From: a bacterium
GTDB lineage: Bacteria; Vulcanimicrobiota; Xenobia; Xenobiales; Xenobiaceae
Reading direction: 5' to 3'
Assembly (NCBI GenBank): GCA_017458675.1
Contig: JAFTAM010000176.1
Coordinates: 2,282 to 66,281, forward strand
Length of the DNA: 64,000 nt
Part shown: positions 37,246 to 57,292 of the stretch, one piece after another
Position numbering within the stretch: position 1 is the stretch's first letter
Layout of the letters: every line of letters starts with the position of its first letter
Made by a program: the position numbers and the translations under genes
The notes under the pieces: generated by a model
Database searches by the model: none
Told to the model about the DNA's origin: nothing
What the model saw: only the letters and a program-made list of their open reading frames with translations

Positions 37246-37277
37246 TTGACATAAACGCTAAATTAAAGTAGTATAAA
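37246..37277 (+). promoter_or_regulatory. Candidate sigma-70-type promoter for the pfa locus
   Basis: TTGACA (37246-37251), 17-nt spacer, TAGTAT/TATAAA (37269-37277), about 70 nt upstream of pfaD ATG in an AT-rich leader. Confidence 0.4.
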
Positions 37278-37344: not shown

Positions 37345-38994
37345 ATGCAGCCTTGCAGCCGCAATTATATAAACTGCCGTTTTTACGGCAATCAGGCTCC
37401 TTCAGCTCCTGAGCAGGCCCTGCGTCGGCTCAATAAGCCCGTATTCGCGGTCCTAAGCCGGGACGGAAGCTCCGCTGAGTTTTACAGCGGCGGCAGAATA
37501 GACTGCGAAGGCGCGGAAAGCGCTTCTGCGGAAGGACGCCCTCTTCTGGCGTTCGTTCCGCCTCTGAGAGCCGAGGATTGGGGAAACGCCGCTTTAAAAC
37601 GGGAATGCGGCATAAAATACGCCTGCCTGAGCGGTTCCATGGCCAACGGCATCGCCTCAGAGGCCTTAGTGGTCAATATGGCCAAAGCCGGCATGATGGG
37701 CTTTTTCGGCTCGGCCGGTTTAGGTCTCAGACAGGTGGAGGATCATATCGACTCCTTGAAAAAGCGTCTGCCCAGTCAGCCCTTCGGCTGCAATCTGATT
37801 TACAATCCCCACAATCAGCCGCTGGAGGCTCAGACCGCCGAACTTTTTATCAGAAAGGACGTCGCTTTTATCGAAGCCTCGGCTTATCTGACCCTCAATC
37901 CTTCGATTCTGCATTACCGCTACAGCGGCGTAAAGGAGCTGCCCGACGGCTCTCTGCATATTCCTCATAAAGTATTTGCAAAGGTTTCGCGCCCGGAAGT
38001 CGCCGCCAAGTTTCTGAGCCCGCCTCCTCCGGAAATGCTGCGCAAGCTGGTTGAGGAGGGAAAACTGACCTCTTCGGAAGCGGCTCTGGCTTCACGCATA
38101 CCTCCCGCCTATGCCTTGACCGCCGAGGCCGACTCGGGCGGCCATACCGACAACCGTCCGGCTCTGGCTCTGATCCCCGCGGTTATCAGTCTGCGCGACA
38201 GCCTGTGCCGAAAATACGGCTGGCATGTTTACGTTGGCGCCGCCGGAGGCGTATCTACTCCCGAATCGGCGGCGGCGATGTTCGCCATGGGCGCCGATTA
38301 CGTCATGACCGGCACGATAAACCAGGCCTGCCAGGAATCGGGCAGCAGCTCCGTAGTGCGGGAAATGCTCTCCAAGGCCACCGGCGCCGACGTCATGATG
38401 GCCCCGGCCGCCGATATGTTTGAAATGGGAGTAAACGTACAGGTGCTCAAATGGGGAACGATGTTCCCGATTCGGGCCCGCCGCCTCTATGAAATTTACC
38501 GCGCCTACGCCAGCTATGACGAGGTTCCCGACAGCATAAAGACCCAGATAGAGCGCGACATGCTGCGTCAGAGCTTCGATCGGGCCTGGGAAAGCACCAA
38601 GGCCTTCTTCCGGGAGCGCGATCCCCAGCAGATAGCCAAAGCCGACGGCAATCCAAAATATAAAATGGCCCTGGTCTTCCGTTCCTATCTCGGACAGGCC
38701 TCGCGCTGGGCCAACGCCGGAATACCCGACCGCAAGACCGACTATCAGATCTGGTGCGGCCCCTCCATCGGAAGTTTTAACCAATGGTGCAAAGGAACAT
38801 TCTTAGAAGACGTGAAGGAACGTCACGCCGATTTGGCCGCGCTCAATATTTTAGCCGGCGCCTGCGTAATTACCAGGGCCAATCTGCTGCGCAGCCAAGG
38901 CATAGAGCTTCCCGGCAGGCTCTGCAGCTTCAGTCCTCTGCCTTATAACGAGTTAGCGTCATTATTACAGGAGTCAGTCAGTGTCCGTCAATAA
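37345..38994 (+). CDS. pfaD: PfaD-family enoyl reductase (trans-acting ER of PUFA/secondary-lipid synthases)
   Basis: AAAGGAATAAAAT then ATG. Segment GSMANGIASEALVVNMAKAGMMGFFGSAGL is the nitronate-monooxygenase-like FMN TIM barrel characteristic of PfaD. 549 aa. Confidence 0.8.
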   Translation: MQPCSRNYINCRFYGNQAPSAPEQALRRLNKPVFAVLSRDGSSAEFYSGGRIDCEGAESASAEGRPLLAFVPPLRAEDWGNAALKRECGIKYACLSGSMANGIASEALVVNMAKAGMMGFFGSAGLGLRQVEDHIDSLKKRLPSQPFGCNLIYNPHNQPLEAQTAELFIRKDVAFIEASAYLTLNPSILHYRYSGVKELPDGSLHIPHKVFAKVSRPEVAAKFLSPPPPEMLRKLVEEGKLTSSEAALASRIPPAYALTAEADSGGHTDNRPALALIPAVISLRDSLCRKYGWHVYVGAAGGVSTPESAAAMFAMGADYVMTGTINQACQESGSSSVVREMLSKATGADVMMAPAADMFEMGVNVQVLKWGTMFPIRARRLYEIYRAYASYDEVPDSIKTQIERDMLRQSFDRAWESTKAFFRERDPQQIAKADGNPKYKMALVFRSYLGQASRWANAGIPDRKTDYQIWCGPSIGSFNQWCKGTFLEDVKERHADLAALNILAGACVITRANLLRSQGIELPGRLCSFSPLPYNELASLLQESVSVRQ

Positions 38995-41900
38995 GTCTGT
39001 CAAAACTAAAGATCAGCCCGAAAATATGCCCATAGCCATAATAGGTATGGGCTGTCTCTTCCCCAAAGCCGGAGACCGCCAAAGCTTCTGGCGGATTCTG
39101 CGCACAGGCGCCGACTGTATCGGTCCCGTGCCGGAGACCCACTGGTCGGTAAACGATCTTTACGACGGCGACCACTCCAGTCCCGACCGCTGCTACGCCA
39201 AAATGGGCGGCTTCCTCGAGCCTTATCCCTTCGATCCTACCGAATTCAATATTCCTCCCAACGTGTTGGAAGCCACCGACACCTCTCAGCTTCTGGGCCT
39301 GGTCGGCGCTAAAGCCGCCCTTGAAGACGCAGGCTACGGCCAGGAGGGCAAGGAGCTTCCCAAGGATCGCACCAGCGTTATTTTAGGCGTCACCGGCGCT
39401 TTGGAAATGGTCATTCCTCTGGGCGCACGCCTGGGCCATCCCCGCTGGCGCAAGGCCCTGGCTCAGGCCGGAATAGACAAAGAGACCTCCGAAAAGATCA
39501 TTGCCGATATCGCCGATTCATACGTATCCTGGCAGGAAAATTCTTTCCCCGGACTTTTGGGCAACGTGGTGGCCGGACGCATTGCCAACCGCCTCGATCT
39601 CCACGGCACCAACTGCGCCGTGGACGCCGCCTGCGCCAGCTCTTTAGCAGCCGTGCATCTGGCGGTTTCCGAACTGCAGGCGGGACAGGCCGACGTCTGC
39701 CTCACCGGCGGAACCGACACCTTCAACGATATTTTCATGTTTACTTGCTTCAGCAAGACTCCCGCCCTTTCCGACAGCGGACGCATCTCCCCCTTCTCGG
39801 AAAGCTGCGACGGCACTCTGCTGGGCGAGGGAATCGGCGTTCTGGTCTTAAAGCGTCTGGCCGACGCCGAGCGCGACAATGACAGAATCTATGCGGTTAT
39901 TAAAGGCATGGGAACCTCCTCCGACGGAAATTCCGGCGCCATTTACGCGCCCAGCGCGCCCGGCCAGGCTATGGCTCTGCGCCGCGCTTATGAGGAAAGC
40001 GCCGTCGATCCCAAAACCGTAGAGGTCGTCGAAGCTCACGGCACCGGCACTAAGGTCGGCGACGCCGTCGAATTCAAGGCGCTTAAGGAAGTTTATCTGG
40101 AAGCCGGAGCCGCTCCGCAGTCCTGCGCCCTGGGCACCGTCAAGTCGCAGATAGGCCATACCAAGGCCTCCGCCGGAGCCGCCAGCCTCTGCAAAGCGGC
40201 CTTCTCTCTCTTCCATAAGGTCATTCTGCCCACTCTGAATGTCAGCAGGCCCAACCCCAAGCTGGAAATAGAGGACAGTCCCTTCTACTTAAACACATCC
40301 GTCCGCCCCTGGATCTCCAATCCTCATCATCCCCGCCGCATCGGCGTATCCTCCTTCGGATTCGGCGGAGCGAATTACCATGCGGTTTTGGAGGAGCACA
40401 AGCCCGAGCGCCTCGCTCCCGCCTGGGACGGTTCCGTGCAGATCTGGCCCTTCTCCGCCGCCGACAAACAGAGTCTGATCGCTTCCGTGCGAAGCGCCGC
40501 CGCCTGCAAGCCCTATGAAAGCGCCTATCAGGCCTGCCTGCAGAGAGAGACTTTCGATCATAAAGCTCCCTGCCGCGCCGTCATTGTAACCGGTCCGGCC
40601 GATTACGCCGAAAAACTGGCCGCTCTGGCCGACGCTCTGGAAAACGGCAAGGAGCAGAGCAATGCGCTGCCCGAAGACGCCTATTACGGCGACGTCTCCT
40701 CCGAATTGGGCAAGGTGGCCTTCCTCTTCCCCGGTCAGGGCAGCCAATATGTGCGCATGGGCTCAGAGCTCTTCAGCGTCTTCCCCGAAGCTCTGCAGGT
40801 TCTGGAATGCGCCCAGCAGACCCTTAAGGGCAGCGGTCAGGCCCCGGCGGAATACATCTTCCCCAAGCCCCGCTTCACCGAAAATGAAGAGGAAGAAAAT
40901 ACCAAAGCCTTAACCGATACCAAGATTACTCAGCCCTCCCTGGGAGCCATGGAAAGCGCTATGGCCGCCGTACTGGAACGCTTTGAGGTCGTGCCTCAGG
41001 CTATGGCCGGCCACTCTTTCGGAGAACTGGTAGCTCTGCAGAGAGCTCAGGTTTATTCTCAGAAGGATCTCTTCTCGCTTTCCGCTCTGCGCGGCGCTTT
41101 AATGGCCGCAGGCGACGGAGGCAGAGGGGCCATGGCCGCAGTATCCGCTCCGTTGGCGGATATTGAAGCCATTGTCGCCGAAGTCGGCGGCGATCTGGTG
41201 CTGGCTAACCGCAATCACCCGACGCAGGGAGTTATTTCCGGCACAAAGGAAGCTCTGGCCAAAGCCGAAGAGCTCTGCAAGGCCAAAAAGATGACCGCCA
41301 AGCGCCTGCAGGTTTCGGCCGCCTTCCACAGCTCGCTCATGCGGAGCGCCCGCGATCCCTTCTTCAGCGCTCTGGAGCAGACGGAATTCAAAACGCCAGT
41401 TCTTCCGGTTTACGCCAATATGACCGGCAAGCTTTACGGAAGCGAAGCTGAAAAGAACCGGCAGACCCTGGCCGATCAGCTGGTAAGCTCCGTGCGCTTC
41501 ATCGACATTGTTGAGGATATGTATGCCGAAGGCTTCCGCACCTTCATCGAAGTCGGCCCCAAAACCGTTCTTACCGGCCTGGTCAAAAAGATTTTGGGGA
41601 AAAATCCCTGCAATCTGCTCTCAACCGACGGCCGCAAAGGCGGAGACGAACTGAAGAATATCGCTCTGACCCTGGCCCGGCTGGCCGCTTTAGGATACGC
41701 CGTCAAGCTGGCGGCCTGGGAAGAAAAGGTCGCCAAGCCCCGTCATAAGCGCATGGAAGTTCCCATCTGCGGCGCCAATTACCGCACGCCCGGCAAAAAA
41801 GCGCCCGCTCCCTGGAGCGATCCCCATGAACCTGCCGAAAACTATCAGCCCATAAAGTTCGTCAGCGACAATCCCCCGGTGATGCCGGCTCCCACTCCTA

Positions 41901-44900
41901 TAGAAAAGCTTGAAATAGTCGAACTTAACTCTCAAAATCAAGCGGCGGCTCCCGCCGAGCCTGCGGCAATCCGCAGTTCAGCGTCCAATTCCGCCGCTTA
42001 CAGTCCCGTCAAGGATAGTCCCGTGTCAAATACCGTTTTTAATTCCCAGCCTGCCGCCGCCGTCTCCCCTGCTGCGCCGATTCCCTCCGCCGGCAGTTCT
42101 TCCGTTCTGCTTGAGGCCTTCAAAACTATCCAGAGCGGCCTCAGCGCCATGCAGGTCCTGCAGGAGCAGACCGCGTCAGCCCACATGCGATTTCTGGAAA
42201 GCCAGGAGCAGATTCAGCGTTCGCTGCAGAGCATCATTTCCGCCCAGCAGGGCTTGGCCCAAGTCAGCCTGAAGCCTCAGGCTCTGCAGACGCTCCACGT
42301 CATGCCGGCCCTGCATATCCCGGCTCCCGCCGCCTTCAGCCAGCCGACCGCCGCCGTTCAGCCCGCCGCCCCGAAGATCGCCGCGCAGCCACAGCCGGAA
42401 ACGCTCTCTTTCTCTCCCATGGCAGGCTATTCAGCCAACGAACCGCTGCCTGTGCCGATATCTTCCCCTAAAAACGAAAGCAGAGATTCCGGGAACCAAA
42501 ACCTGCAGCTTCCCAAAGCCCCTCAGGAAAAGCCTCAGACCGACGCCGCCGTAGCCGTTCTTTCCGTAGTTTCGGAAATGACCGGCTATCCCGCCGATAT
42601 GCTGCGCCTGGATATGAATTTAGAAACAGACTTAGGCATTGATTCCATTAAGAGAGTGGAAATTCTCTCCGCCATTCAGCGCAGTCTGCCCCAGGCAAAA
42701 ACCATAGCTCCCGACGAAATCGGCTCGCTGCAGACCCTGCAGCAGATTATAGAGCGCTTAGGCGTCTCCTCAGCCGCCCCGCAGCCGAAAACGGCTCCCG
42801 CAGTTCCGGCAGTTCCTGCTTCTCCCGAGCCGAAAGCCGAACCCGCCGCCCGGCCTCAAGGCTCCGCCGAGAAGATCGTCATGAAGGTTGTGACCGAAAC
42901 TACGGGTTATCCTGAAGAAGCCGTCAATCTGGATATGGACCTGGAAAACGATTTAGGCGTCGATTCCATTAAGCGCGTGGAAATTTTAGCCGCCATCCAG
43001 AAGGCGCTGCCCGACGCAGCCCAGATCGCTCCCGACGAGCTCAGCTCTCTGCACACGCTGCGCCAGATATTGAATAAGCTGCAGCCCGAGAGCAAGGCTT
43101 CCCCGTTATCCGCGTCCGAAAGCAAAGAGACGGTTTCCCGTCCCTCCGCGCCCGAACAGAACCTGCAGTCAGGCTCCGTCGCCGAAACCATAATTTCAGT
43201 CATAGCCGAAATGACCGGCTATCCGGTTGAAACCTTAAATCCGGATCTGGATTTAGAAAACGATTTGGGCATTGACTCCATTAAGCGCGTGGAAATTTTA
43301 GCCGCCATTCAGAAAGCGCTGCCCAACGTCAAGGATATTGCTCCCAGCGAGCTCACCGATCTCCATACCATTAAGGATATCATCGCCCGCCTGAGCAGCG
43401 ATCCTCACGATCCTCAGGGTGGACCTTCTCCTTCCGATCCCGATAAGGATAAAAAAAAAGATCATAATTCAGGAATAGACAGAAAAAACAGCGGTCCGGA
43501 CCCGCATTCAGCCGCAGCCCTGGGGGGGGCTTTGTTCGGCTCCGAGCCGCCTTTGCTGCGCCGCCGCCTCCGTTATCTGCCTTCCCCCAGGCCCTCACAG
43601 TCCGCAGAAACTGCGAACCAGGGGCTTTATTTGATTTTAGGGGACAAAAATCTGGGACGCGCTCTCAAAAACGCCCTGACGCTTTCCGGAAAGCAGGCTG
43701 AATTCATTCCCGTCCAAAAAGTATCCGACCTCATGCTGCCGCAGAAATTTTCGGTTATAGCGGTAATGGAGCATACTGATATTAAACAGGAAGAAGACGT
43801 CTATAAAACTTTCAGGCAGTCCCAAAGGAGCTTAAAGGAGCTCTTCCGCAGCGTGCGAGCTGTTTGCCAGGCCTGCAATAAAAAGAAAATCCACCCCCAG
43901 AGCTTTACTACCGTAACTTGTCTCGACGGCGCCTTCGGAACAGAAAGGCCGGATTTCCAGCCGATTGAGGCCGGTCTGCACGGCCTGGCCAGAGTAATGG
44001 CCAACGAATATCCTCAGACCGTCTGCCGCGCCTTTGACGTCGATTCTCAGCTTCAAACTGCGGAAGCAGCCGCTCTCATTGCCGAAGAACTGAAGGTAAA
44101 GGGAAGCAATGAAGTAGGTTTAAGCGCCCAAACCAGACGCATAGCCGTTCTGCAGGAAGACAGGCTCAATTTAGAGCAGCCCAACCCCTCTCTGCCGGCC
44201 CGTCCCGTAATCATAGTCACCGGCGGAGCGCGCGGAGTTACCGCAGACTGCGCAAAGACGCTGGCAAAAGCCTGCCGGCCCCGCTTTATCCTGATCGGAC
44301 GCTCTCCCGTCCCCCGGAAAGAAGCGGCGGAAACCGCGCAGGCCTCGACCCCGCAGGCTTTGAAATCTCTGCTCTATACTCAAGCCAAAGCCAGGGGGCT
44401 CAGCCTCACTCCCAAAGACCTTGAAGCTACATGCCGGCAGATTCTGGCCAACCGCGAAGCGCTGCAGAATATCGCCGAACTGGAAGCGGCAGGCTCCGAG
44501 GCGCTGTATATATCTGCAGACGTTCAGGATTTTTCCCAGGTTAAAGAAGCTGTGAATCTGGCCAAAAAGCGCTTCGAACGCATCGACGGCGTAATCCACG
44601 GCGCAGGAGTGCTGGCCGACCGCTATATCGCCGACAAAACCGACGAGCAGTTCAACCGGGTTTTTGATACTAAAATCTGCGGACTTTACAACCTCTGCCA
44701 GGCTCTGAAGGACGAACCTCTTAAGTTCGTACTGACTTTCTCTTCGGTTTCGGCCCGCTTCGGACGTCCCGGCCAGTGCGATTACGCCATGGCCAACGAG
44801 GTCATGAACAAATTTACGCACTTCGCCTCCTTCCGCCATCCTCAGACCCGCTATACGGCCATGGGCTGGGGTCCCTGGGAAGGCGGCATGGTCGACGCCG

Positions 44901-45946
44901 CTCTGAAACGCGTCTTTGAAGAGCTCAAGGTCGAGGTTATCGCCCGCCCCAAAGGGACCCGCGCCTTAGCCGAAGAGGTCATTTTCGGCCGAGCCAGGGA
45001 CGCCGAGCTGATAATGGGCGAAGGTTTCGACGTACCCTCGGAGCCTCAGCCGAAAAGCTCCGACAACGCGCCGCGCGAAAGCTTTCGGCGCACTCTGAAC
45101 CTTCAGAATTACAGTTTTCTTCAGGATCACGTAATTAACGGCCGCCCGGTCATGCCTATCGCCCTCATGGTGGAACTGGCCGCCCAGGCCTGCCGCAGTT
45201 ATTTCCCCGAATACAAATTCTTAGGCTGCGACAAACTGCGGGTCCTCCACCCCATCGCTCTGCCCGCGGACAAGAACATCGCCGCTGAAAAGAGAGCTCA
45301 GGCAGAGAGCGACCTCTGCATAAGCGCGGACAAACTCATTAAAGAAGACAATCTTCTGCAGGCGGAACTGACCTTCTGGCACTCCGACGGAAGCGGCGAA
45401 AGGCGGAAATGCGTGGTCTGCACGGCCCTTTTAGGCAAAGAAAGACCTGATAATTCCAAGGTTGAATTCCCCCGGACTCAGACCGCCGCAGCCGCCGACA
45501 GCCGCCGCCACAATATAGAAGATATTTATAAAAACTATCTCTTCCACGGTCCCAGCTTAAAAGGCATAGACAATATTGAGCGCCACAGCCCGAACGATAT
45601 TGTTGTAAACGCAAGAAACTTGGGAGGTTTGCCGTTAAGCCAGCCTGACGGAGAAGCGCTCACCGATCCTCTGTTTTTAGACTGCGCTCTGCAGACGGGC
45701 CTTATATTCAGCGGTCTGGAGCAGGGAAGCTGCTCGCTGCCTATGTACTGCGGCCGATACCGCCAGTATGTCGATAAATTCCCCGCCAGCGCCAAAATAG
45801 CTCTGGTAGCCAGCGACAGCAACCCTCAGCAGCTCAGGGGCGATATTTACATCGAACATGACGGCGACATTTTAGCGCATCTGGGCGACGTTCACTGGAC
45901 CGTAAGTCCCGGCTTGGCCGAATCCTTCCGCCGAAACCGCTTATAA
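38981..45946 (+). CDS. pfaA: PfaA-like multidomain polyketide/fatty-acid synthase: KS-AT-ACPx3-KR-DH
   Basis: GTG start overlapping the pfaD end (AGGAG RBS). KS motifs DAACASSLAAVHL, EAHGTGTKVGD, KSQIGHTKAS. AT motif GHSFGE. Three ACP repeats (LGIDSIKRVEILSAIQ, LGVDSIKRVEILAAIQ, LGIDSIKRVEILAAIQ at ~nt 42640, 42955, 43270). KR motif IIVTGGARGVT. PKS-type DH motif LQDHVINGRPVMP. Confidence 0.9.
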   Translation: MSVNKSVKTKDQPENMPIAIIGMGCLFPKAGDRQSFWRILRTGADCIGPVPETHWSVNDLYDGDHSSPDRCYAKMGGFLEPYPFDPTEFNIPPNVLEATDTSQLLGLVGAKAALEDAGYGQEGKELPKDRTSVILGVTGALEMVIPLGARLGHPRWRKALAQAGIDKETSEKIIADIADSYVSWQENSFPGLLGNVVAGRIANRLDLHGTNCAVDAACASSLAAVHLAVSELQAGQADVCLTGGTDTFNDIFMFTCFSKTPALSDSGRISPFSESCDGTLLGEGIGVLVLKRLADAERDNDRIYAVIKGMGTSSDGNSGAIYAPSAPGQAMALRRAYEESAVDPKTVEVVEAHGTGTKVGDAVEFKALKEVYLEAGAAPQSCALGTVKSQIGHTKASAGAASLCKAAFSLFHKVILPTLNVSRPNPKLEIEDSPFYLNTSVRPWISNPHHPRRIGVSSFGFGGANYHAVLEEHKPERLAPAWDGSVQIWPFSAADKQSLIASVRSAAACKPYESAYQACLQRETFDHKAPCRAVIVTGPADYAEKLAALADALENGKEQSNALPEDAYYGDVSSELGKVAFLFPGQGSQYVRMGSELFSVFPEALQVLECAQQTLKGSGQAPAEYIFPKPRFTENEEEENTKALTDTKITQPSLGAMESAMAAVLERFEVVPQAMAGHSFGELVALQRAQVYSQKDLFSLSALRGALMAAGDGGRGAMAAVSAPLADIEAIVAEVGGDLVLANRNHPTQGVISGTKEALAKAEELCKAKKMTAKRLQVSAAFHSSLMRSARDPFFSALEQTEFKTPVLPVYANMTGKLYGSEAEKNRQTLADQLVSSVRFIDIVEDMYAEGFRTFIEVGPKTVLTGLVKKILGKNPCNLLSTDGRKGGDELKNIALTLARLAALGYAVKLAAWEEKVAKPRHKRMEVPICGANYRTPGKKAPAPWSDPHEPAENYQPIKFVSDNPPVMPAPTPIEKLEIVELNSQNQAAAPAEPAAIRSSASNSAAYSPVKDSPVSNTVFNSQPAAAVSPAAPIPSAGSSSVLLEAFKTIQSGLSAMQVLQEQTASAHMRFLESQEQIQRSLQSIISAQQGLAQVSLKPQALQTLHVMPALHIPAPAAFSQPTAAVQPAAPKIAAQPQPETLSFSPMAGYSANEPLPVPISSPKNESRDSGNQNLQLPKAPQEKPQTDAAVAVLSVVSEMTGYPADMLRLDMNLETDLGIDSIKRVEILSAIQRSLPQAKTIAPDEIGSLQTLQQIIERLGVSSAAPQPKTAPAVPAVPASPEPKAEPAARPQGSAEKIVMKVVTETTGYPEEAVNLDMDLENDLGVDSIKRVEILAAIQKALPDAAQIAPDELSSLHTLRQILNKLQPESKASPLSASESKETVSRPSAPEQNLQSGSVAETIISVIAEMTGYPVETLNPDLDLENDLGIDSIKRVEILAAIQKALPNVKDIAPSELTDLHTIKDIIARLSSDPHDPQGGPSPSDPDKDKKKDHNSGIDRKNSGPDPHSAAALGGALFGSEPPLLRRRLRYLPSPRPSQSAETANQGLYLILGDKNLGRALKNALTLSGKQAEFIPVQKVSDLMLPQKFSVIAVMEHTDIKQEEDVYKTFRQSQRSLKELFRSVRAVCQACNKKKIHPQSFTTVTCLDGAFGTERPDFQPIEAGLHGLARVMANEYPQTVCRAFDVDSQLQTAEAAALIAEELKVKGSNEVGLSAQTRRIAVLQEDRLNLEQPNPSLPARPVIIVTGGARGVTADCAKTLAKACRPRFILIGRSPVPRKEAAETAQASTPQALKSLLYTQAKARGLSLTPKDLEATCRQILANREALQNIAELEAAGSEALYISADVQDFSQVKEAVNLAKKRFERIDGVIHGAGVLADRYIADKTDEQFNRVFDTKICGLYNLCQALKDEPLKFVLTFSSVSARFGRPGQCDYAMANEVMNKFTHFASFRHPQTRYTAMGWGPWEGGMVDAALKRVFEELKVEVIARPKGTRALAEEVIFGRARDAELIMGEGFDVPSEPQPKSSDNAPRESFRRTLNLQNYSFLQDHVINGRPVMPIALMVELAAQACRSYFPEYKFLGCDKLRVLHPIALPADKNIAAEKRAQAESDLCISADKLIKEDNLLQAELTFWHSDGSGERRKCVVCTALLGKERPDNSKVEFPRTQTAAAADSRRHNIEDIYKNYLFHGPSLKGIDNIERHSPNDIVVNARNLGGLPLSQPDGEALTDPLFLDCALQTGLIFSGLEQGSCSLPMYCGRYRQYVDKFPASAKIALVASDSNPQQLRGDIYIEHDGDILAHLGDVHWTVSPGLAESFRRNRL

Positions 45947-46051
45947 CCGATACCACCCTGTTTTAAGGCTCGGAGCTTAAGCCGCAGCTGCTGTCCGAGC
46001 CGTTTTCTGTTTTACAGAATAATTCAAAATAATTAAACGGACCATCAGAAC

Positions 46052-49000
46052 ATGTCAGATAATCACTGCGATATAGCTATAGTCGGAATGGGACTGCACT
46101 TTCCCGGCGCGGACAGTCCCGAACAGTATTGGAAAGCTCTGCAGAGAGGCGAAGATCTCGCCCGCCCCATGGATGAAAAGAGACGCAAGGTTTCCCTAAA
46201 CGGCCTGATCAGTCCACAGACCAAAGCCGACGCTATGCGCTGCGACAGGGGATATTTTTTAAACGCTCTGCCCACGCCTCAGCAGCTTGATCTTCCCGAG
46301 GGAACAGACCCTCTTTTTGTTTTGGCATTAAGTACGGCGGAGCAGGCCTTAAAGGACGCCGGCAAGCTGCCGTCGGAACAGACCGGCGTCATTATGGCCT
46401 CCATCGCCCTGCCCACCGATACCACCTCGGCCCTGAGCGAAAGCACGCTGGGACGCAGCTTTGCCGAGAGCCTGCAGGCCAAGCTGCCGCCGGATAAAGC
46501 CTCGGCCGTCTCACCCGCCGAACTGCTGCCCTGCGAATATACTTTCCTCAGCAGCGTCTCCGACAGCAGCGAACAGGTTAAAGCTCTGAACAATTACCCG
46601 GTCGGACTTCCGGCTCAGCTGATCGCCTCCCGTTTCAGCCTGGGACTGGGAGCTTACACTTTAGACGCGGCCTGCGCCTCCTCGCTGGTAGCTATCGAGC
46701 TGGCCTGCCGGGAACTGCGCAGCGGGCGCGCCGAGGCCATGTTGGCCGGCGGCCTCTCCCGCCCCGACTGCCTCTACACTCAAATGGGCTTTTCCGCCCT
46801 CCACGCCCTCTCGCCCAGCGGCGCATGCTCTCCTTTTGACAAAAAAGCCGACGGACTTATGGTCGGCGAAGGCTGCGGTCTGGTCGTTCTGAAACGCCTG
46901 AAAGACGCCGAACGCAGCGGCGACAAAATTTACGGAGTCATTAAAGGAACAGGTCTTTCCAACGACATCGAAGGCAGTCTGGTGGCCCCGGCCAACGAGG
47001 GGCAGATCCGCTGCCTCCGGGACGCCTATCAAATCTGCGGCCTGAAGCCCTGGGATATAGACTTTATCGAATGCCACGGAACCGGCACACCGGTAGGCGA
47101 CAGCATTGAGTTCAAAAGCCTGCAGACTCTCTGGGAAGGAGCTCCCGAAAGCAGCCGCTGCCAGCTCCGCTCCGTCAAATCCATGCTGGGCCATTTATTG
47201 ACCGCCGCCGGTTCCGCCGGCTTAATCAGAGTGCTCTTAAACCTGCAGAAGGGGCAGATCACGCCGCAGGTCAACTTCAATGAAGCGGGCATACCTCTGA
47301 AAGAGAGCCATTTTGAAATATCCAATCAGTCCGTATCCTGGCCGAAAAAGGCCGAGGCTCCCCGCCGGGCCGCCGTCAGCGGCTTCGGCTTCGGCGGCAT
47401 CAACGCCCATTTAATTATCGAAGAATATCTGCCTCAGACAGCCTGCGAAGTCAACAGCGCGGCAGACGCACGGGCAACCGCTTCCTCCGCGCCCGCCTCT
47501 GCAGAAGAATCTGAAAACGGCGAAGAAGCGGCCGCCATTATCGGAATGGCCTGCCGCTTAGGCCAAATCGGCAGCATTCGCGAACTGGCCGGCGCTTTGT
47601 TGGACGGAAATTTTGAAAATGCAAAAATTTCGCCGGAGCCGTCCGCTCAGACATGCGAAAAATCCCGTCAGGGCGGCGCTTTCCTGAACAAGGTCGACAT
47701 ACCTATAGGGCGCTTCCGCATCCCTCCCGCCGATCTGCCCTCCATTCTGCCTCAGCAGTCCCTGCTTTTAAATACGGCCGCCGAGGCTATGCTCGACGCC
47801 GGTCAGCCCCTGCGCCTGCAGCGCGAGAGAGCCGCTGCGGTTATCGGCATAAATCTCGACTTAAATTCCACAAATTTCAATCTGCGCTGGCTGTTAAAAG
47901 ACAAAGCTGAAATCTGGGCGCAGAATTTAGGCTTAGACGAAAATGAAGCCAAGAGATGGCAGGAGGCCCTCAAGGATGAAATCTCCGAGCCCCTGGATGC
48001 GGTAAAAACTATCGGCGCTTTAGGCAGCATCGCAGCCAGCCGCGCCGCCCGCGAATTCCGTTTCGGCGGATGCTCTTTTACGGTGTCTTCCCAGGAGCTG
48101 TCCGGCTTTGACGCGCTGCAGATAGGCGCAGAGGCTCTGCTGAACCGCCGTCAGGATTTAATATTAGTCGGCTCAATAGACCTTCAGGGAGATCCGCGCC
48201 TGGCCTCCTGCCGCTTAAAAGACGAACCCATGCCCGAAAAATACGGAGAAGGGTCCTGCTGCCTGGTTTTAAAGAGGTACAGCGACGCCGTAAAGGACGG
48301 AGACCACATTTATGCGCTCATTAAAGGCTTGGCCAAAGCTGGCGCGGCCGCCCCGGAGAAAGACTCCTATACCGCTTTGGAAACGGCTTTGCGGCAGGCC
48401 TGTGAATACTCAGGAACACCGGCCGAAGACATTGCCTATCTGGAAACGGTCAACGGGCAATATCTCAGTCAGGGTCCCCAGAGCGCCTGTCAGACCCTGC
48501 GCCGCGTCTTGGACAGAGGGACCAAACCTCTGAGCGCGGGCAGCATTGAGGATTACGTCGGCCATAACGGCGCAAATTCCTTTACAGCCTCCCTGATCAA
48601 AACCGCCTTATGTCTCGACCAGGAGCTCTGGCCCGCCTCCAGACATTTTGACAGACTCTGCGGAGACGCAAACGATTGGCGCGGCAGTCGCTTTACCGTA
48701 CAGAAAACTTCATCTTTCTGGTTCAGAAACCGAGCTGAGGGGCCGCGGCGGGCCTTAGTCTGCGGGCGAGCCTACCCCGGTCAGTATGCCGCCGCCGTCT
48801 TAGAAGAACATTTTTCCGACGCTTACAGACCTCTGGCCGCTCCGCAGCTGCAGATCGGGATCTGGCCCTTCTTCGGCGAAAACGCCCAGGCGATAACCGC
48901 CAAACTGTCGGCGGTCCTGGAAAAAACTAAAGAGCTGCAGTCCCTGTCTGCGTCGGCTTCAGAGCAAAGCCGCCTGCTCCGGAACTTATGCCTGGATAAT

Positions 49001-52000
49001 TACCGCAGGGAAAAGGAAGAAGGAGCATCCCGCCTGTGTCTGGCCATAGCCAGCGACAGAAAAAACTCCGCTCCCCTCGCGGAATTCCAAAAACAGCTGG
49101 AAACAGCTCTGCAACATCTGCAGACCTCGCCCGAACAGGAACTGCGCCAGAATTCAATATTCTACAGCGCCGAGCCGCTGGCAAAATCCGGAAAAACAGC
49201 CTTTGTCTATCCCGGTTCAGGCGCAAATTTCTTAGGTTTGGGGCGCGAATTCGCTCTCAATTTCCTGCCTCTCATGCATCGCTTCGACCGCGAAAATCTG
49301 TATATGGCCGGCGAATTTGCCGCTAAATACAATCAGCCTCTGCGCCTGGACTGGTCTGAAGGCTGGCAGCAGAGAGCCGTACAGGAGCTGCAGGCCGACA
49401 CTCATCATATGATGTCCAGCCAGGTGAGCTTCGCCATGCTGACCACTGATATCGCGCGCTCTCTGGGTATAGAGCCGAACTGCGCCATAGGCTACAGCCT
49501 GGGCGAATCCTCGGCCCTCTTCTCTCTGCGGGCCTGGCCGGACCGCGATAAGATGTATCTGCGCATGGAGGGCTCCGATCTCTTCCGGGAGAAACTTTCC
49601 GGCAAATGCACGGCCGCCCGTCAGGCCTGGCACATTCCCGAAAACGCTCCCTTCAGTTGGAGCGCCGCCCTCTTGCCCGTACCGGCCGATAAGGTTAAAG
49701 AGGCGCTCAAGAATGTTAAAAACGCGCGTCTGCTGATTATCAATACCGACAAAGAGTGCGTAGTCGGCGGAACTCCCGAAGGCATTGACGAACTTTGCGC
49801 TCTGCTGCATACCAAAGCCATTAAAGTCAGCGGCGTAGATACCGTACACTGCGACTGTCTGGAGCCTGCGGCTGAAGAATATTGGCATATGCACCATCTG
49901 CCCTGCCAGCCTCTGCCCGGGGTTGAGTTCTACAGCGGCTGCAAAAACTGCGCATATCCTCTTACTTCAGAAAATATCGCCGACTCAATCGTCTCCCACG
50001 GACGGTACGGTTTTGATTATACAAAAACCATTCGCCGCGCCTGGGAGGACGGGGCCCGCATATTCCTTGAGATGGGACCGGGCTCTTCCTGCGCCCGCAT
50101 GATCCGCAGTATACTGCGCGGCAAACCACATTTTGCCATTAGCCTGAGCGGACGCGGCCAATCGGAGATGTTCTCCCTGGCCCAGTTCCTGGCAGGCGTT
50201 CTGAGCCAGGGGCTCCGTCCCGATCTCAGCCCGTTCTTCCCCTCGCTGCAGGCTGAAAAAGCAGAAAAGACGACGCCCACCCTGACCGTCCCGCTGAGCC
50301 GCCGTCCCTGCGATCCTCCGCTTCCCGCTTTTCCGAAAGCTTTATTCTCTGAAGGCACAAATACCGCTATGACCCAGAAAATTAAAACCGATTTGACGCT
50401 CGAATCCGAAACTGTCCCTGTCGAAACCGCAAAACCGGCCGAAGGCAGGACGCTCACAGAAATAACTGCGCTCAGCGCTGCCGAGGCAGCTTCAGTTCCG
50501 GACGCTCCGAAATGCGTCTGCGCCGATCCTCTGCAGAGTCTGCTTATGCAGCTGGCCCGAAATTCAAATTCAGCCCACCGGAAATGGCTTGAATTTGTCG
50601 GACAAAGCGCTAAAGTCTGGGAAAACCTTCTGGTCGGTCAAAGCAGCCTTATCTCCCAGGCCGCCGCCGGCAATCCGCAGCTGTTCAGGGAGCCGCTGAC
50701 AGTTGAAAAACCGTCGGAAGCCGCGCCTGTCTTATCCCCGGCGGCCCAATTTGCGCCTCATTCAGAAGATAAAGACCAAACTCACAAAGAGCACGGCTAC
50801 ACTCATAAGCTGCACGGCATCGAAACTACCGCCGACGGAGGCTATATCTGCGGCTTTAAGCCCAGCCTGGCCCCGCCCGATCAAAAGGTATTTTTAAACC
50901 GTCGGCAGTGTCTTGAATTTGCTACCGGCAAAATCGGCGACGTCTTGGGCGAACAGTTTGCTCCCATAGACAGCTATGCCGCCCGAGTGCGCCTTCCTGC
51001 CGAACCCTTGATGCTGGTAGACCGCATCGTTTCCATTGAAGGCGAACCTCTCAGCTTAGGCGCCGGACGCATAATTACCGAGCACGACGTCGTCCCCGAT
51101 ATGTGGTATCTCGACGGAAACCGCGCCCCGGTCTTTATTTCCGTGGAAGCCGGCCAGGCCGACCTGTTCCTGTGCAGCTGGCTGGGCATAGACTTCCAGG
51201 CCAAGGGCGACAGAGTATACCGGCTTTTGGACGCCAACGTCAAATTCCACCGCGGCCTGCCTCAGCCCAGCGAAACCGTACGCTACGATATCCGCATCAA
51301 GCGCTTTATCAACCAGGGAGAGACCTGGCTCTTCTTCTTTGAATACGAAGGAACTATCAACGGCGAGACCTTCCTGACCATGCGCGATGGCTGCGCCGGC
51401 TTCTTTACTCAGGAGGAGATCCGCAATAACGGCGGCCTGGTCATGACCGAAGCCAGCCTGCGCCCTCAAAAAGGCAAAAAAGGTCCGGAAGTCCAGGAAC
51501 TGACTCCTCTGAGCGCTTCCAGCTACACGCTGGAACAGGTCGAGGCTCTGCGCCGCGGCGATCTCGAGGGCTGCTTCGGCGCCGCCTTCGCCGGTCTGAA
51601 TCTGAAGAAGCCCGTAAGCCTGCCCGCCGGTCTGCTGCGCCTGATCCACCGCATCCCCGAATGCGACCCCTTCGGAGGACGCTGGGGCCTGGGCAAGGTG
51701 GTGGCCGAAGCCGACGTCCATCCCGAAGACTGGTATCTGACCTGCCACTTCATAGACGACATGGTCATGCCGGGAACCCTGATGTACGAATGCTGCGCTC
51801 ACGCTCTGCGCTTCCTATTAACCCGCTTTGGCTGGGTAGGCGAACAGGATAAAATTGCCTATGAACCGGTTCTGGGCGTCACCGCCGTACTCAAATGCCG
51901 CGGCCCGGTTCTGCAGACCACCAAGACCGTGCGCTACCAGGTTGAGATTAAGGAAATGGGCTACAACCCGGCGCCTTACGTCATTGCCGACGCTATCATG

Positions 52001-53380
52001 TACGCCGACAACAAGCGCATAGTGGGCTTTGAAAACGTTTCCATGCAGCTGACCGGCACAACCGGCGAAGAGCTGGAAAAGCTCTGGGCTGAGCGCAGCG
52101 CTTCTTCCCAAAACGCAGCTATTGAGCCGGGAAGCGCCTGCACTGACGACTGCGGCGACCCCAGAGCCGCCAATCCCGGCGATCTCAGCCATGCCGACGG
52201 CCGTTTAGGTCTGCTGCCCGCTTATAAAAATGTTACCATGAACGGCGATCCTCTCAAGGAAGCCATATTTACCGAGGAAAACTTCCGCCAATTTTCCGTA
52301 GGTCAGCCCAGTCTGGCCTTCGGCAAGGCTTTCAGGCCCTTCGACTCCCGATTTATAGCCCGCCTGCCGGGAGTGCCCTATCAGTTCGTAAACCGCATCG
52401 TGAGCGCCGATCATCCCTTCTTGGAGACCAAAGCCGGCGGCTGGGTAGAAGCGCAGTACGACGTACCGGCCAACGCCTGGTATTTTAAGGCCAACAAGAC
52501 CGGAGCCATGCCCTTCTGCGTAATAAATGAAATCGCGCTGCAGGTCTGCGGCTGGGTCTCCAGCTATGCCGGTTCTTCCCGCCACAGCTCGGATCCCTTA
52601 TATTACCGAAATTTGGGCGGAACCTCCGTGCTGCGCAGGGAAATTACTCCTCAAACCGGACGCATAACCATTAAGGTGCGCATGACTAAATCCTCGGAAG
52701 CAGGCGGACTGATCATTCAATCCTTTGATATGAAAATCGAGCAGAAGGGTGAAGTTATATATGAAGGCACGACCACCTTCGGCTTCTTCACTAAGCAGGC
52801 CCTTGCCGATCAGGTAGGCATCCGCGGCTGGAAGAGCAGAATTTGGCTGCCCGAGCAGGAAAATACGCCCGAAAGTCTGCCGATACAGCATCCCTTAAGC
52901 CCCTATGACGAAAATCTCGAGCAAAGCGGCAGCCTGGAACTTCCCGCCAAGGCTCTGCTGATGCTGGACAGCTTCGCCTGGTATCCTCAGGGCGGAAGCA
53001 AGGGACTGGGTGCGGCGGTAGGACGCAAAAAGATCGATCCCAAGGAATGGTTCTTCACCGCCCACTTCTTCCAGGATCCGGTCATGCCCGGCTCCTTAGG
53101 CTTAGAAGCCTTCCTGCAGGTACTTAAGGCAGCCGCCTTAAAACTGTGGCCCCACTTGCAGAAGACCCATCGCTTCAGCGCTATAACCGCCGGTTCTCCT
53201 CATACCTGGCTCTACCGGGGACAGGTTACCCGCGCCAATTCCTTTACAACCGCAAGAGCTGAGATAACCGAAATCCATGACGGTCCCGAGCCGTATCTGA
53301 AGGCCCGAGGCTTCCTGCAGGCCGATGATTTAACTATTTACGAGCTTCAGGATTTCGGCATAGCTCTGCTGAAAAGCTGA
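46052..53380 (+). CDS. pfaC: PfaC-like protein with integrated acyltransferase: KS-CLF-AT-DH(FabA-like)x2
   Basis: KS motifs LDAACASSLVAIEL, ECHGTGTPVGD, KSMLGHLLTA. A second KS-like domain lacks the active Cys (chain-length factor). AT motif AIGYSLGESSALFSL (~nt 49490). Two FabA-type hotdog pairs with CHFIDDMVMPG (~nt 51740) and AHFFQDPVMPG (~nt 53060). Ends ~110 aa after the last DH. Confidence 0.9.
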   Translation: MSDNHCDIAIVGMGLHFPGADSPEQYWKALQRGEDLARPMDEKRRKVSLNGLISPQTKADAMRCDRGYFLNALPTPQQLDLPEGTDPLFVLALSTAEQALKDAGKLPSEQTGVIMASIALPTDTTSALSESTLGRSFAESLQAKLPPDKASAVSPAELLPCEYTFLSSVSDSSEQVKALNNYPVGLPAQLIASRFSLGLGAYTLDAACASSLVAIELACRELRSGRAEAMLAGGLSRPDCLYTQMGFSALHALSPSGACSPFDKKADGLMVGEGCGLVVLKRLKDAERSGDKIYGVIKGTGLSNDIEGSLVAPANEGQIRCLRDAYQICGLKPWDIDFIECHGTGTPVGDSIEFKSLQTLWEGAPESSRCQLRSVKSMLGHLLTAAGSAGLIRVLLNLQKGQITPQVNFNEAGIPLKESHFEISNQSVSWPKKAEAPRRAAVSGFGFGGINAHLIIEEYLPQTACEVNSAADARATASSAPASAEESENGEEAAAIIGMACRLGQIGSIRELAGALLDGNFENAKISPEPSAQTCEKSRQGGAFLNKVDIPIGRFRIPPADLPSILPQQSLLLNTAAEAMLDAGQPLRLQRERAAAVIGINLDLNSTNFNLRWLLKDKAEIWAQNLGLDENEAKRWQEALKDEISEPLDAVKTIGALGSIAASRAAREFRFGGCSFTVSSQELSGFDALQIGAEALLNRRQDLILVGSIDLQGDPRLASCRLKDEPMPEKYGEGSCCLVLKRYSDAVKDGDHIYALIKGLAKAGAAAPEKDSYTALETALRQACEYSGTPAEDIAYLETVNGQYLSQGPQSACQTLRRVLDRGTKPLSAGSIEDYVGHNGANSFTASLIKTALCLDQELWPASRHFDRLCGDANDWRGSRFTVQKTSSFWFRNRAEGPRRALVCGRAYPGQYAAAVLEEHFSDAYRPLAAPQLQIGIWPFFGENAQAITAKLSAVLEKTKELQSLSASASEQSRLLRNLCLDNYRREKEEGASRLCLAIASDRKNSAPLAEFQKQLETALQHLQTSPEQELRQNSIFYSAEPLAKSGKTAFVYPGSGANFLGLGREFALNFLPLMHRFDRENLYMAGEFAAKYNQPLRLDWSEGWQQRAVQELQADTHHMMSSQVSFAMLTTDIARSLGIEPNCAIGYSLGESSALFSLRAWPDRDKMYLRMEGSDLFREKLSGKCTAARQAWHIPENAPFSWSAALLPVPADKVKEALKNVKNARLLIINTDKECVVGGTPEGIDELCALLHTKAIKVSGVDTVHCDCLEPAAEEYWHMHHLPCQPLPGVEFYSGCKNCAYPLTSENIADSIVSHGRYGFDYTKTIRRAWEDGARIFLEMGPGSSCARMIRSILRGKPHFAISLSGRGQSEMFSLAQFLAGVLSQGLRPDLSPFFPSLQAEKAEKTTPTLTVPLSRRPCDPPLPAFPKALFSEGTNTAMTQKIKTDLTLESETVPVETAKPAEGRTLTEITALSAAEAASVPDAPKCVCADPLQSLLMQLARNSNSAHRKWLEFVGQSAKVWENLLVGQSSLISQAAAGNPQLFREPLTVEKPSEAAPVLSPAAQFAPHSEDKDQTHKEHGYTHKLHGIETTADGGYICGFKPSLAPPDQKVFLNRRQCLEFATGKIGDVLGEQFAPIDSYAARVRLPAEPLMLVDRIVSIEGEPLSLGAGRIITEHDVVPDMWYLDGNRAPVFISVEAGQADLFLCSWLGIDFQAKGDRVYRLLDANVKFHRGLPQPSETVRYDIRIKRFINQGETWLFFFEYEGTINGETFLTMRDGCAGFFTQEEIRNNGGLVMTEASLRPQKGKKGPEVQELTPLSASSYTLEQVEALRRGDLEGCFGAAFAGLNLKKPVSLPAGLLRLIHRIPECDPFGGRWGLGKVVAEADVHPEDWYLTCHFIDDMVMPGTLMYECCAHALRFLLTRFGWVGEQDKIAYEPVLGVTAVLKCRGPVLQTTKTVRYQVEIKEMGYNPAPYVIADAIMYADNKRIVGFENVSMQLTGTTGEELEKLWAERSASSQNAAIEPGSACTDDCGDPRAANPGDLSHADGRLGLLPAYKNVTMNGDPLKEAIFTEENFRQFSVGQPSLAFGKAFRPFDSRFIARLPGVPYQFVNRIVSADHPFLETKAGGWVEAQYDVPANAWYFKANKTGAMPFCVINEIALQVCGWVSSYAGSSRHSSDPLYYRNLGGTSVLRREITPQTGRITIKVRMTKSSEAGGLIIQSFDMKIEQKGEVIYEGTTTFGFFTKQALADQVGIRGWKSRIWLPEQENTPESLPIQHPLSPYDENLEQSGSLELPAKALLMLDSFAWYPQGGSKGLGAAVGRKKIDPKEWFFTAHFFQDPVMPGSLGLEAFLQVLKAAALKLWPHLQKTHRFSAITAGSPHTWLYRGQVTRANSFTTARAEITEIHDGPEPYLKARGFLQADDLTIYELQDFGIALLKS

Positions 53381-55372: not shown

Positions 55373-55394
55373 TAAATAGCTTTTGAACGTACAA

Positions 55395-55430
55395 GCGGCT
55401 TCTGCAGATTCGCAGAAAGCCGTTTTTTTA
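55395..55430 (+). terminator. Rho-independent terminator
   Basis: CGGCTTCTGC-loop-GCAGAAAGCCG followed by TTTTTTTATT, 20 nt after the 55372 stop. Confidence 0.65.
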
Positions 55431-55545
55431 TTGTTATTTGGCTAAACGCAGCGCCTCTCGGAGCCGGCCGGCTTACTGGCCTTAAACTTTATTTAATGAA
55501 GCTCGGGGGCGCGCCGAAGCAAAGAAGCAACGCCTATCGTCAATG

Positions 55546-57179: not shown

Positions 57180-57292
57180 TCTTATGCGGCAAGTTATTTT
57201 TAGCCAAGCTAACATTTTCATCAGTTAAGTTTTCCATAAATACCGGATATGTAGTAAAATACATATCCATTTAAACGGAGCGGAAAAAAACA

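Follow-up and report, generated by a model that had tools for sequence, protein, structure and literature searches.

The published layout nearest to the locus studied here is Type I, catalogued by Shulse and Allen in 2011, which in Geobacter bemidjiensis consists of pfaD, A, B, C, oleABCD and pfaE (PMC3098273; PMC4882568). Type I is found in Geobacter, Desulfuromonas, Pelobacter and Gemmata and 'most often' has a phosphopantetheinyl transferase (PPTase) nearby; Types J and K resemble it closely, Type J having 3 ACPs (PMC3098273). The myxobacterial Type L (Pfa1-3; Aetherobacter, Sorangium) comprises three genes with the enoyl reductase (ER) gene first. Its Pfa3 ends in an AGPAT domain that is said to occur only in this type, and Aetherobacter, with its acyltransferase (AT) inside Pfa3, has the PPTase at a separate locus (PMC4882568). 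The marine PfaABCDE systems (Types A/B; Shewanella EPA, Moritella DHA) have a separate PfaB with an N-terminal pseudo-KS, pfaD last, pfaE usually adjacent, 4-6 ACPs and often an orf6 thioesterase upstream (PMC3098273, PMC4882568).

The window, by which we mean the whole 64-kb stretch of DNA that was analysed, carries three co-directional ORFs on the forward strand, at 37345-38994 (pfaD), 38981-45946 (pfa2) and 46052-53380 (pfa3). As judged from the sequence, their order is that of Type I (pfaD-pfaA-pfaBC), and the oleABCD linkage of Type I is missing. The locus and Type I share the fused pfaBC (KS-CLF-AT-DH2), the lack of an AGPAT, a low ACP count and obligate-anaerobe hosts, but the window has neither adjoining ole genes nor a pfaE, and it has a divergent ~280-aa gene of its own. 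With Type L, the locus shares the leading ER gene, the three-gene organisation and, as in Aetherobacter, the AT inside Pfa3; unlike in Type L, this Pfa3 has no AGPAT, and Type L hosts live aerobically in soil rather than as anaerobes in the gut. The catalytic domains of the locus are those of the marine systems, from which the closest solved PfaD and PfaB structures come and whose PfaB signature the AT bears, whereas gene order, free-standing PfaB, ACP number and adjoining genes set those systems apart.

The initial annotation had likened the layout to myxobacterial rather than gammaproteobacterial clusters, which is right as to the ER-first order and the embedded AT, but the nearest published layout is Type I, not Type L. 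The organisation, which it called non-canonical, is so only when set against Shewanella-type pfaABCDE. Since Type I was catalogued in 2011, the architecture is widespread (at least 119 homologues) and an unlinked PPTase was already documented, the implied unusualness was overstated. The locus is an ordinary member of the known Pfa family, with a catalogued layout that is common in anaerobes. We put at roughly 70% the probability that the three genes form an intact operon for a Pfa-type ('secondary lipid') synthase that works iteratively and without oxygen, in a gut-associated bacterium that is uncultured and most probably belongs to class Xenobia.

Domain content and catalytic residues

The gene structure, domain order, catalytic residues, conservation and synteny of the pfa operon were observed directly. 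The pfaD ORF (549 aa) overlaps by 14 nt with pfa2 (2321 aa, GTG start), and pfa3 (2442 aa) follows after a 105-nt gap, a tight spacing consistent with one operon. A sigma-70-like promoter candidate (TTGACA-17-TAGTAT, 37246..37274, forward strand), which by pattern match alone fits 10/12 positions in a consensus scan, lies ~70 nt 5' of pfaD. The ORF list, Pfam and NCBIfam bear out the initial annotation of three genes with a complete Pfa-type domain set, ER first, and all the motifs it quoted were found in the translations: DAACASS (both KS), GHSFGE, three G[IV]DSIKRVEIL repeats, VTGGARGVT, LQDHVINGRPVMP, GYSLGE, CHFIDDMVMPG and AHFFQDPVMPG. The ORFs are unbroken over the ~16 kb of pfa1-pfa2-pfa3, and every catalytic residue is retained.

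The first gene, pfaD/pfa1, encodes a trans-acting PfaD-family enoyl reductase in which residues 75-512 (nt 37567-38880) make up the conserved domain. The protein scored 571.9 bits against TIGR02814 (pfaD_fam, cut-off 449) in the NCBIfam scan and had Pfam matches to NMO and FabD_helical_ins; its best solved relatives in a PDB search were the PfaD structures 6lkc and 4yx6 (E ~1e-146). The second, pfaA/pfa2, encodes a KS-MAT-ACPx3-KR-DH protein that reached 1421 bits against TIGR02813 (omega_3_PfaA, cut-off 1010; NCBIfam scan). Pfam placed the KS at residues 17-421 (nt 39029-40243), Acyl_transf_1, the MAT, at 581-873 (nt 40721-41599), three tandem PP-binding domains at nt 42548-43405, the KR at 1744-1967 (nt 44210-44881) and PKS_DH_N at 2032-2103, beside which the C-terminal half of the PKS-type DH (nt 45074-45913) matches PS-DH. 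The KS active site comprises the DAACASS Cys at 218, HGTGT at 353 and GHT, and the MAT carries PGQGSQ at 584, GHSFGE at 677, Arg at Ser+25 and AAFH. Serines within GxDSI at 1219, 1326 and 1430 agree with the three ACPs originally counted, and GGARGV at 1748 and HVINGRPVMP at 2050 mark the KR and the DH. The scores lie far beyond chance and, for PfaD and PfaA, far above the curated cut-offs.

The third gene, pfa3, is a pfaBC fusion whose product has the architecture KS-CLF-AT-DH'-DH-DH'-DH (Pfam, NCBIfam and PDB). The KS (residues 7-409, nt 46070-47278, by Pfam) has Cys208, His342 and His381, and residues 7-738 had as best PDB match 6riw_A (molecule name 'ORF10', E 1e-95), presumably the KS-CLF didomain of Moritella PfaC. 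The second KS-like region, the CLF (nt ~47528-48811), aligns to residues 522-857 of 6riw_A and has Gln681 at the Cys position. The PfaB-type AT (residues 1044-1357, nt 49181-50122) is indeed integrated between the CLF and the FabA-type DHs, as had been proposed, in one uninterrupted ORF; no frameshift was found, and at least 119 homologues have the same continuous architecture. The AT carries GYSLGE at 1147, with Tyr1148-Ser1149, and His1266 in VDTVH; there is no Arg at +25 (Gly at Ser+25), and PGSGA replaces PGQxQ. It scored 82.5 bits against pfaB_fam in the NCBIfam scan, under the curated cut-off of 144; this model presumably covers the N-terminal KS' domain of PfaB as well, and Pfa3 lacks the KS' half that free-standing PfaB has. 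The best PDB match of the AT was PfaBs in 9ry8 (E 8e-24), and its residues fit the published criteria for PfaB, namely GYSxG with Tyr, the xAxH His and the absence of both the Arg and the Gln of PGQxQ (PMC12895367).

Domain HMMs supported the annotated order KS-CLF-AT-DH-DH and paired the DHs with pseudo-DHs, giving four FabA-like hot-dog domains: a first pseudo-DH at residues 1648-1775 (nt 50993-51376), DH1 at 1857-1992 (nt 51620-52027; His1899), a second pseudo-DH at 2109-2239 (nt 52376-52768) and DH2 at 2297-2432 (nt 52940-53347; His2338). Only 10 residues separate the end of the last of these (2432 of 2442) from the stop, which leaves no room for an AGPAT; together with the lack of a PlsC match in Pfam and NCBIfam, this confirms that Pfa3 has no such C-terminal domain.

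Relatives and neighbouring genes

At least 119 full-length public proteins have the Pfa3 architecture, none with a C-terminal extension; in each of the 119, no more than 116 aa follow the DH2 His. The catalytic residues of KS, AT and DH1, His1899 included, are conserved in 119/119, the AT Tyr and His2338 of DH2 each in 118/119, and the CLF position is variable. The closest named relatives belong to Candidatus Bruticola (57% identity, syntenic flanks), which is gut-associated and placed in class Xenobia of the Vulcanimicrobiota/Eremiobacterota; to our knowledge, this class has no cultured member. A distance tree of Pfa3 homologues put the window in a clade of its own (~18 sequences) together with Ca. 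Bruticola, and the identity of Pfa3 to proteins from Planctomycetota, Desulfobacterales and Armatimonadota is only ~36-42%. The order pfaD, pfaA, pfaBC recurs in Verrucomicrobia LW23 (L004) and in Gemmataceae (L010, L011). A 604-aa ORF of another locus (L003), considered as a displaced PfaD, proved unrelated. The GC3 of the pfa genes (0.65-0.66) lies inside the range of the window, which, with the operon and flank synteny shared with Ca. Bruticola, points to a resident, maintained system and leaves recent horizontal transfer unsupported. A tRNA scan and an Rfam scan of the window returned nothing.

Divergent from pfaD, on the reverse strand at 36179..37030, lies a gene for a conserved 283-aa protein, which synteny only assigns to the system. 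In all informative contexts a gene of ~280 aa lies 5' of pfaD in divergent orientation, and it is restricted to this clade. Its product has invariant His, Cys, Asn and Arg residues and a confidently predicted structure with no convincing PDB fold match; we regard the gene as a possible accessory or regulatory component specific to the clade. An orf6-like hot-dog thioesterase was ruled out for the nearby 146-aa ORF (35719-36159) because its product is lipobox-bearing, Lys/Arg-rich and of low complexity. Directly 3' of pfa3, on the forward strand, lie two paralogous genes (53490-54374 and 54593-55372) for Gly/Pro-rich proteins whose central part resembles a glycine zipper; a Pfam scan found no family for them. 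One copy of this gene is present at the same position in Ca. Bruticola L071 and L072 (42-46% identity), and in L074 no such gene was called downstream, the next gene encoding 828 aa. By position and similarity, the paralogues appear to be conserved neighbours of the synthase.

When 42 window ORFs (the three Pfa and 39 flanking ones) were run against Pfam, and the three Pfa proteins also against NCBIfam, the 64-kb window yielded no match to a PlsC acyltransferase, an ACPS/PPTase, a thioesterase or an Ole-type family. In line with the initial annotation, a six-frame regex for the Sfp motif W/F-x-x-KE-[SA]-x-x-K and phmmer/jackhmmer searches with the PPTase of a related locus (L007, 3466-4308) likewise found no Sfp-type PPTase in the window, and the L007 enzyme was the only one in the related loci searched in this way. 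A pfaE immediately beyond the window had been contemplated; on the right side, none was found in the ~4.4 kb covered by a metagenome contig (L069) that carries the right-end genes of the window with identical protein sequences. The 10 kb flanking the syntenic Ca. Bruticola clusters on each side likewise contained no PPTase.

Predicted route and product

The activity of the synthase, the identity of its product, the way in which this is released and the origin of the phosphopantetheine arms are inferred. Since no PPTase was found in the window, in the ~4.4 kb to its right or beside the syntenic clusters, activation of the Pfa2 ACPs is assumed, and a PPTase encoded elsewhere in the genome would convert the three of them to the holo form. 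The Pfa2 MAT would load malonyl groups, as its malonyl-specific motifs (PGQGSQ, GHSFGE, Arg +25, AAFH) suggest, and the chain would be extended by the Pfa2 KS and the KS-CLF didomain of Pfa3. Each beta-keto group would be reduced by the Pfa2 KR, and dehydration may fall to the PKS-type DH of Pfa2 or to the two FabA-type DH pairs of Pfa3. The FabA-type domains would isomerise trans-2 to cis-3 in selected cycles, thereby keeping cis double bonds, and free-standing PfaD would carry out enoyl reduction in the remaining ones. The embedded PfaB-type AT, in which a Tyr adjoins the catalytic Ser, a Ser-His dyad is present and the malonyl-binding Arg is missing, probably handles the long-chain acyl product and may transfer or release the finished chain. 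As neither AGPAT nor Ole genes lie nearby, the product would be handed to unlinked lipid-assembly enzymes. A long polyunsaturated acyl chain is the most likely product; domain content leaves chain length and double-bond number unfixed. No product is known for any cluster of the exact type without ole. Types I and K were listed under 'uncharacterized products' by Shulse and Allen (PMC3098273).

Besides becoming free PUFA for phospholipid, such a chain has other likely fates, as oleAB(CD) very often follows related synthases. The synthase could instead feed a medium- or long-chain polyunsaturated acyl precursor (e.g. 16:4n-3) to an unlinked OleABCD, with a very-long-chain polyolefin such as hentriacontanonaene (C31:9) as the end product, in the way proposed for Geobacter Type I; G. 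bemidjiensis, where pfa, ole and pfaE genes stand in tandem, makes C31:9 (PMC4882568; PMC3098273). Among the related loci, oleA and oleB follow a pfaC-like gene in ~50 of 66, and in Gemmataceae oleA-D homologues come directly after the pfa genes (L010; L011 is also ole-linked). However, neither the 64-kb window nor the sequence up to 10 kb from the syntenic clusters L071, L072 and L074 yielded an OleA-D homologue. Most ole-linked loci carry a different, shorter (~1400 aa) KS-CLF-DH protein, and, of the long GYSxGE-AT loci with downstream sequence, only L006 has adjoining ole genes. We thus regard a polyolefin product as unlikely here, and the missing ole genes, present after many related synthases, would seem to be a clade-specific trait.

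Distinctly less likely is a product that is not polyunsaturated, i.e. a saturated, monounsaturated or hydroxylated long acyl chain for a specialised envelope lipid. Pfa-like synthases also build heterocyst glycolipid and phenolic-lipid chains (PMC3098273), and most pfa-carrying anaerobes are without a report of PUFA (PMC4882568). The low count of three ACPs would suit such a product, whereas the two FabA-type DH pairs, the PKS-type DH, the trans ER and the PfaB-type AT, with their active-site histidines intact, argue for polyunsaturation. We know of no heterocyst-glycolipid or ars-type system with the arrangement of double FabA-DH and PfaB-AT. That the locus is a silent or decaying remnant which has lost its PPTase and off-loading partners is highly improbable: PPTase, thioesterase, AGPAT and ole genes were all missing from the window, but its ORFs and catalytic residues are intact, the same operon and neighbours are retained in relatives at 57-59% identity, and an unlinked PPTase is normal in Moritella marina (documented for strain MP-1) and in myxobacteria (Aetherobacter), with E. 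coli EntD able to replace PfaE (PMC4882568). PPTase linkage to pfa genes is not obligatory (PMC4882568).

Implications for host-associated Xenobia

The current understanding of the Pfa enzyme family is unchanged by a locus whose architecture, catalogued in 2011, is abundant in public data; what is extended is the range of Pfa-type synthases, to host-associated Xenobia. Bacterial PUFA synthesis is usually tied to cold, high-pressure marine settings. As a speculation that we hold to be rather unlikely, gut Xenobia may use a self-contained Pfa synthase that lacks both ole and AGPAT to make PUFA lipids de novo in the warm anoxic gut, with the ~280-aa partner as a new factor in release, transfer or regulation. 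The lack of both ole and AGPAT makes the locus a clean case for product exit with a PfaB-type AT alone, and the conserved unknown-fold gene beside pfaD is a concrete candidate for a missing partner. If a long-chain PUFA or a related polyene is made in ruminant or primate guts, this would be an unrecognised microbial lipid source in an anoxic, warm habitat.

Domain content and catalytic residues of the synthase

The three synthase genes lie on one strand, and the ORF table is identical to the coordinates first assigned to them: pfaD (37345-38994), encoding Pfa1 (549 aa); the Pfa2 gene (38981-45946; 2321 aa, GTG start), which overlaps the Pfa1 ORF by 14 nt; and the Pfa3 gene (46052-53380; 2442 aa), which follows after a gap of 105 nt. 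Curated models leave no doubt that Pfa1 belongs to the PfaD family (TIGR02814; 571.9 bits, cut-off 449) and that Pfa2 is a PfaA protein (TIGR02813; 1421 bits, cut-off 1010). The catalytic domains proposed in the initial annotation were backed by Pfam and NCBIfam models, and all the short motifs it quoted were found in the proteins. Pfa2 comprises a KS, an acyltransferase, three PP-binding stretches, a KR and a PKS-type dehydratase (Pfam), while Pfa3 contains two KS-like regions and four FabA-like stretches (Pfam), with a PfaB-like acyltransferase at residues 1044-1357 (NCBIfam). Rescanning of Pfa3 cut into pieces placed the hot-dog domains as pseudo-DH (1648-1775), DH (1857-1992), pseudo-DH (2109-2239) and DH (2297-2432).

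The nearest solved structures are components of PUFA synthases. The ER matched the PfaD structures 6lkc and 4yx6 (E about 1e-146), the Pfa3 KS and second KS-like region matched 6riw (molecule name 'ORF10'; 1e-95), which we take to be the KS-CLF didomain of Moritella marina PfaC, and the embedded AT matched the Shewanella PfaB structure 9ry8 (8e-24). The Pfa3 KS has a Cys-His-His triad (208, 342 and 381). The CLF carries Gln681 at the Cys position (window about 48092-48094), which is occupied by Glu in 72, Asp in 24 and Gln in 12 of 119 Pfa3 homologues. Gln at this position is likewise found in KSQ loading domains and in the chain-length factors of type II PKSs, and a role of Gln681 in decarboxylative priming is possible. 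The Pfa2 acyltransferase displays a malonyl-specific signature (PGQGSQ, GHSFGE, Arg at Ser+25, AAFH). The Pfa3 AT carries the signature of PfaB-type long-chain acyltransferases set out by a 2026 structural study (PMC12895367), namely Tyr for His before the catalytic Ser (GYSLGE), a Ser-His dyad (with His1266), and loss of both the Arg (Gly instead) and the glutamine of PGQxQ (PGSGA).

In a MAFFT alignment of the 119 full-length Pfa3 homologues (2274-2544 aa), the catalytic residues of KS, AT and DH1 are invariant, the AT Tyr and the DH2 His are each kept in 118, and at most 116 aa extend beyond the last DH histidine. This conservation excludes a frameshift artefact that would make the AT a separate ORF, confirming the AT as an integral part of the third megasynthase. 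Loss of an AGPAT from Pfa3 is ruled out as well, since none of the homologues has a longer tail.

A long-catalogued cluster type with presumably unlinked partners

Shulse and Allen sorted pfa-like clusters into Types A-T (PMC3098273). In Type I (Geobacter, Desulfuromonas, Pelobacter, Gemmata), a type linked with obligate anaerobes, pfaB and pfaC are fused; Type K resembles it, and Type J, 'pfaD followed by pfaA [KS-MAT-ACP3-KR]', is regarded as a partial Type I. In Type L, found in myxobacteria and others, pfaD is 5'-most and there is an extra C-terminal acyltransferase (PMC3098273), the AGPAT domain being restricted to this type (PMC4882568). By these descriptions, the window cluster has the pfaD-pfaA-pfaBC core of Type I/K and is not a truncated myxobacterial cluster. 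The proposed likeness to myxobacteria holds for the leading pfaD, as in Type L. The three-gene order is shared with Verrucomicrobia LW23 and with two Gemmataceae loci where, unlike in the window, oleABCD homologues follow directly.

Of 8000 candidates scored in a homology search with Pfa3, 6749 reached E<=1e-20. The best 120 belong to Planctomycetota, Desulfobacterales/Thermodesulfobacteriota, Armatimonadota and other groups, and 119 of them are full-length (2274-2544 aa). The Pfa3 architecture is common. While the descriptive interpretation of the locus was supported overall and the observation itself confirmed, its supposedly unusual organization was not: the cluster type is widespread, and a PPTase encoded at a separate locus is nothing unusual, pfaE being unlinked in Moritella marina MP-1 and Aetherobacter (PMC4882568).

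Pfam scans of Pfa1, Pfa2 and Pfa3 and of 39 ORFs flanking them were negative for ACPS/PPTase, PlsC-type acyltransferase, thioesterase and Ole-type families. In the window, a six-frame scan found no Sfp motif, and phmmer/jackhmmer searches with the Sfp-type PPTase adjoining a related cluster (L007) found no PPTase. A metagenome contig (L069) that carries the right-end genes of the window with identical protein sequences continues for about 4.4 kb, where the sole further products are an M3 peptidase and an unknown protein of 755 aa. The reported lack of a PPTase extends to these 4.4 kb, and that of an AGPAT agrees with both the family scan and the short homologue tails.

Relatives and genomic surroundings

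Pfa3 is recorded as 'hypothetical protein IJT93_11570 [bacterium]', encoded by a contig of 79,027 nt. Its closest named relatives are from Candidatus Bruticola (57% identity, full length), of the class Candidatus Xenobia, phylum Vulcanimicrobiota, formerly Eremiobacterota (NCBI taxonomy), followed by a goat-rumen MAG (48%). Synteny in and around the operon is shared by a Ca. Bruticola genome (L071) and a second relative (L072, a contig from a sequencing run; Pfa3 59% identical). In the common order, an opposite-strand unknown gene of about 280 aa precedes pfaD, pfaA and pfaBC, and these are followed by genes for a Gly/Pro-rich protein, a HAD hydrolase, Fe-S proteins (L071), an ATP-grasp protein and lastly an M3 peptidase. 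In a Pfa3 distance tree the window falls with these relatives in a clade of about 18 sequences, and GC3 values of 0.65-0.66 put the pfa genes within the range of other window genes (0.54-0.77). Many Fe-S proteins are encoded elsewhere in the window. Two further features, at 3562-4950 and 11869-15331 (+ strand), fit a host-associated anaerobe: a leucine-rich-repeat protein of the BspA type, with PT repeats, and a Na+-translocating oxaloacetate decarboxylase (alpha and beta subunits). Synteny, tree, GC3 and gene content together point to an operon resident in such an organism.

The divergent gene upstream of pfaD (36179-37030, - strand; 283 aa) adjoins it in all five informative contexts (window/L067, L071, L072, L073 and L074), even where the relative's Pfa3 is just 42% identical. 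The protein has no sequence match in Pfam, NCBIfam or PDB and only 13 representatives among 1.84 billion proteins. An AlphaFold2 model from a 12-sequence alignment is confident (pLDDT 91.8, pTM 0.88), and the invariant residues include H22 as well as H157, C159, N165 and R166 within the motif FHSC[HY]Q..NR. Its conserved adjacency makes the gene a candidate partner of the synthase. Next to it, a 146-aa predicted lipoprotein (35719-36159, - strand), with no family match, carries an LSAC lipobox in its signal peptide, after which comes an extremely Lys/Arg-rich low-complexity tail.

Downstream, pfa3 is adjoined by two tandem paralogous Gly/Pro-rich proteins (53490-54374 and 54593-55372, + strand) that match no Pfam family; they share the N-terminus MF[TI]PG[VA]PFGPNPFGGP, a centre resembling a glycine zipper (GGLLG.GLG...GGGMLGSILGGGIG) and a tail rich in Pro and Gly, and Ca. 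Bruticola keeps a single copy directly 3' of pfa3. The following AT-rich 1.9 kb (55373-57292; GC about 0.42) contains no ORF of at least 100 aa, no tRNA and no Rfam match. Within it, a sequence of about 170 nt is directly repeated (55557-55727 and 56937-57108; 79-85% identical, 1381 nt apart). This stretch may be a deletion or rearrangement scar, as an EamA transporter gene occupies the corresponding position in both L071 and L072.

Predicted activity and product

The best-supported reading of the sequence is a working Pfa-type synthase, predicted to make a long-chain polyunsaturated acyl chain. An unlinked PPTase would activate it in trans, the chain would be assembled on the three tandem ACPs, with cis double bonds kept by the FabA-type dehydratase/isomerases and PfaD reducing in the remaining cycles, and the embedded PfaB-type AT would handle the finished chain.

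Alternatively, the product may be delivered to an unlinked Ole pathway to yield a polyolefin, as proposed for Geobacter; in Geobacter bemidjiensis the order is pfaD, A, B, C, oleA-D, pfaE (PMC4882568). oleA and oleB, often with oleC, lie directly 3' of the pfaC-like gene in about 50 of 66 related genome loci, most of them encoding a different, shorter KS-CLF-DH protein of about 1400 aa. Among the long GYSxGE-AT loci with downstream sequence at hand, only L006 is ole-adjacent, and no ole genes adjoin the synthase in the window, L071, L072 or L074. A large group of related clusters in Desulfobacteraceae and relatives (L015-L065) has a pfaC-like protein of about 1400 aa followed directly by oleA-oleB(-oleC). 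Scanned for motifs, these proteins showed a single KS and a single FabA-type DH motif but none for an AT, and they seem to form a separate, ole-dedicated subfamily. A further alternative is that the synthase makes a non-polyunsaturated secondary lipid. That the cluster is a silent remnant is strongly argued against by 16 kb of intact ORFs, conserved catalytic residues and conserved synteny.

The locus is an addition, from a poorly known gut lineage, to a long-catalogued and widespread cluster type. Two clade-particular traits stand out, the 283-aa gene upstream of pfaD and the absence of ole linkage, and the combination of a clade-specific unknown gene with a synthase lacking ole and AGPAT partners gives the locus modest value for follow-up.
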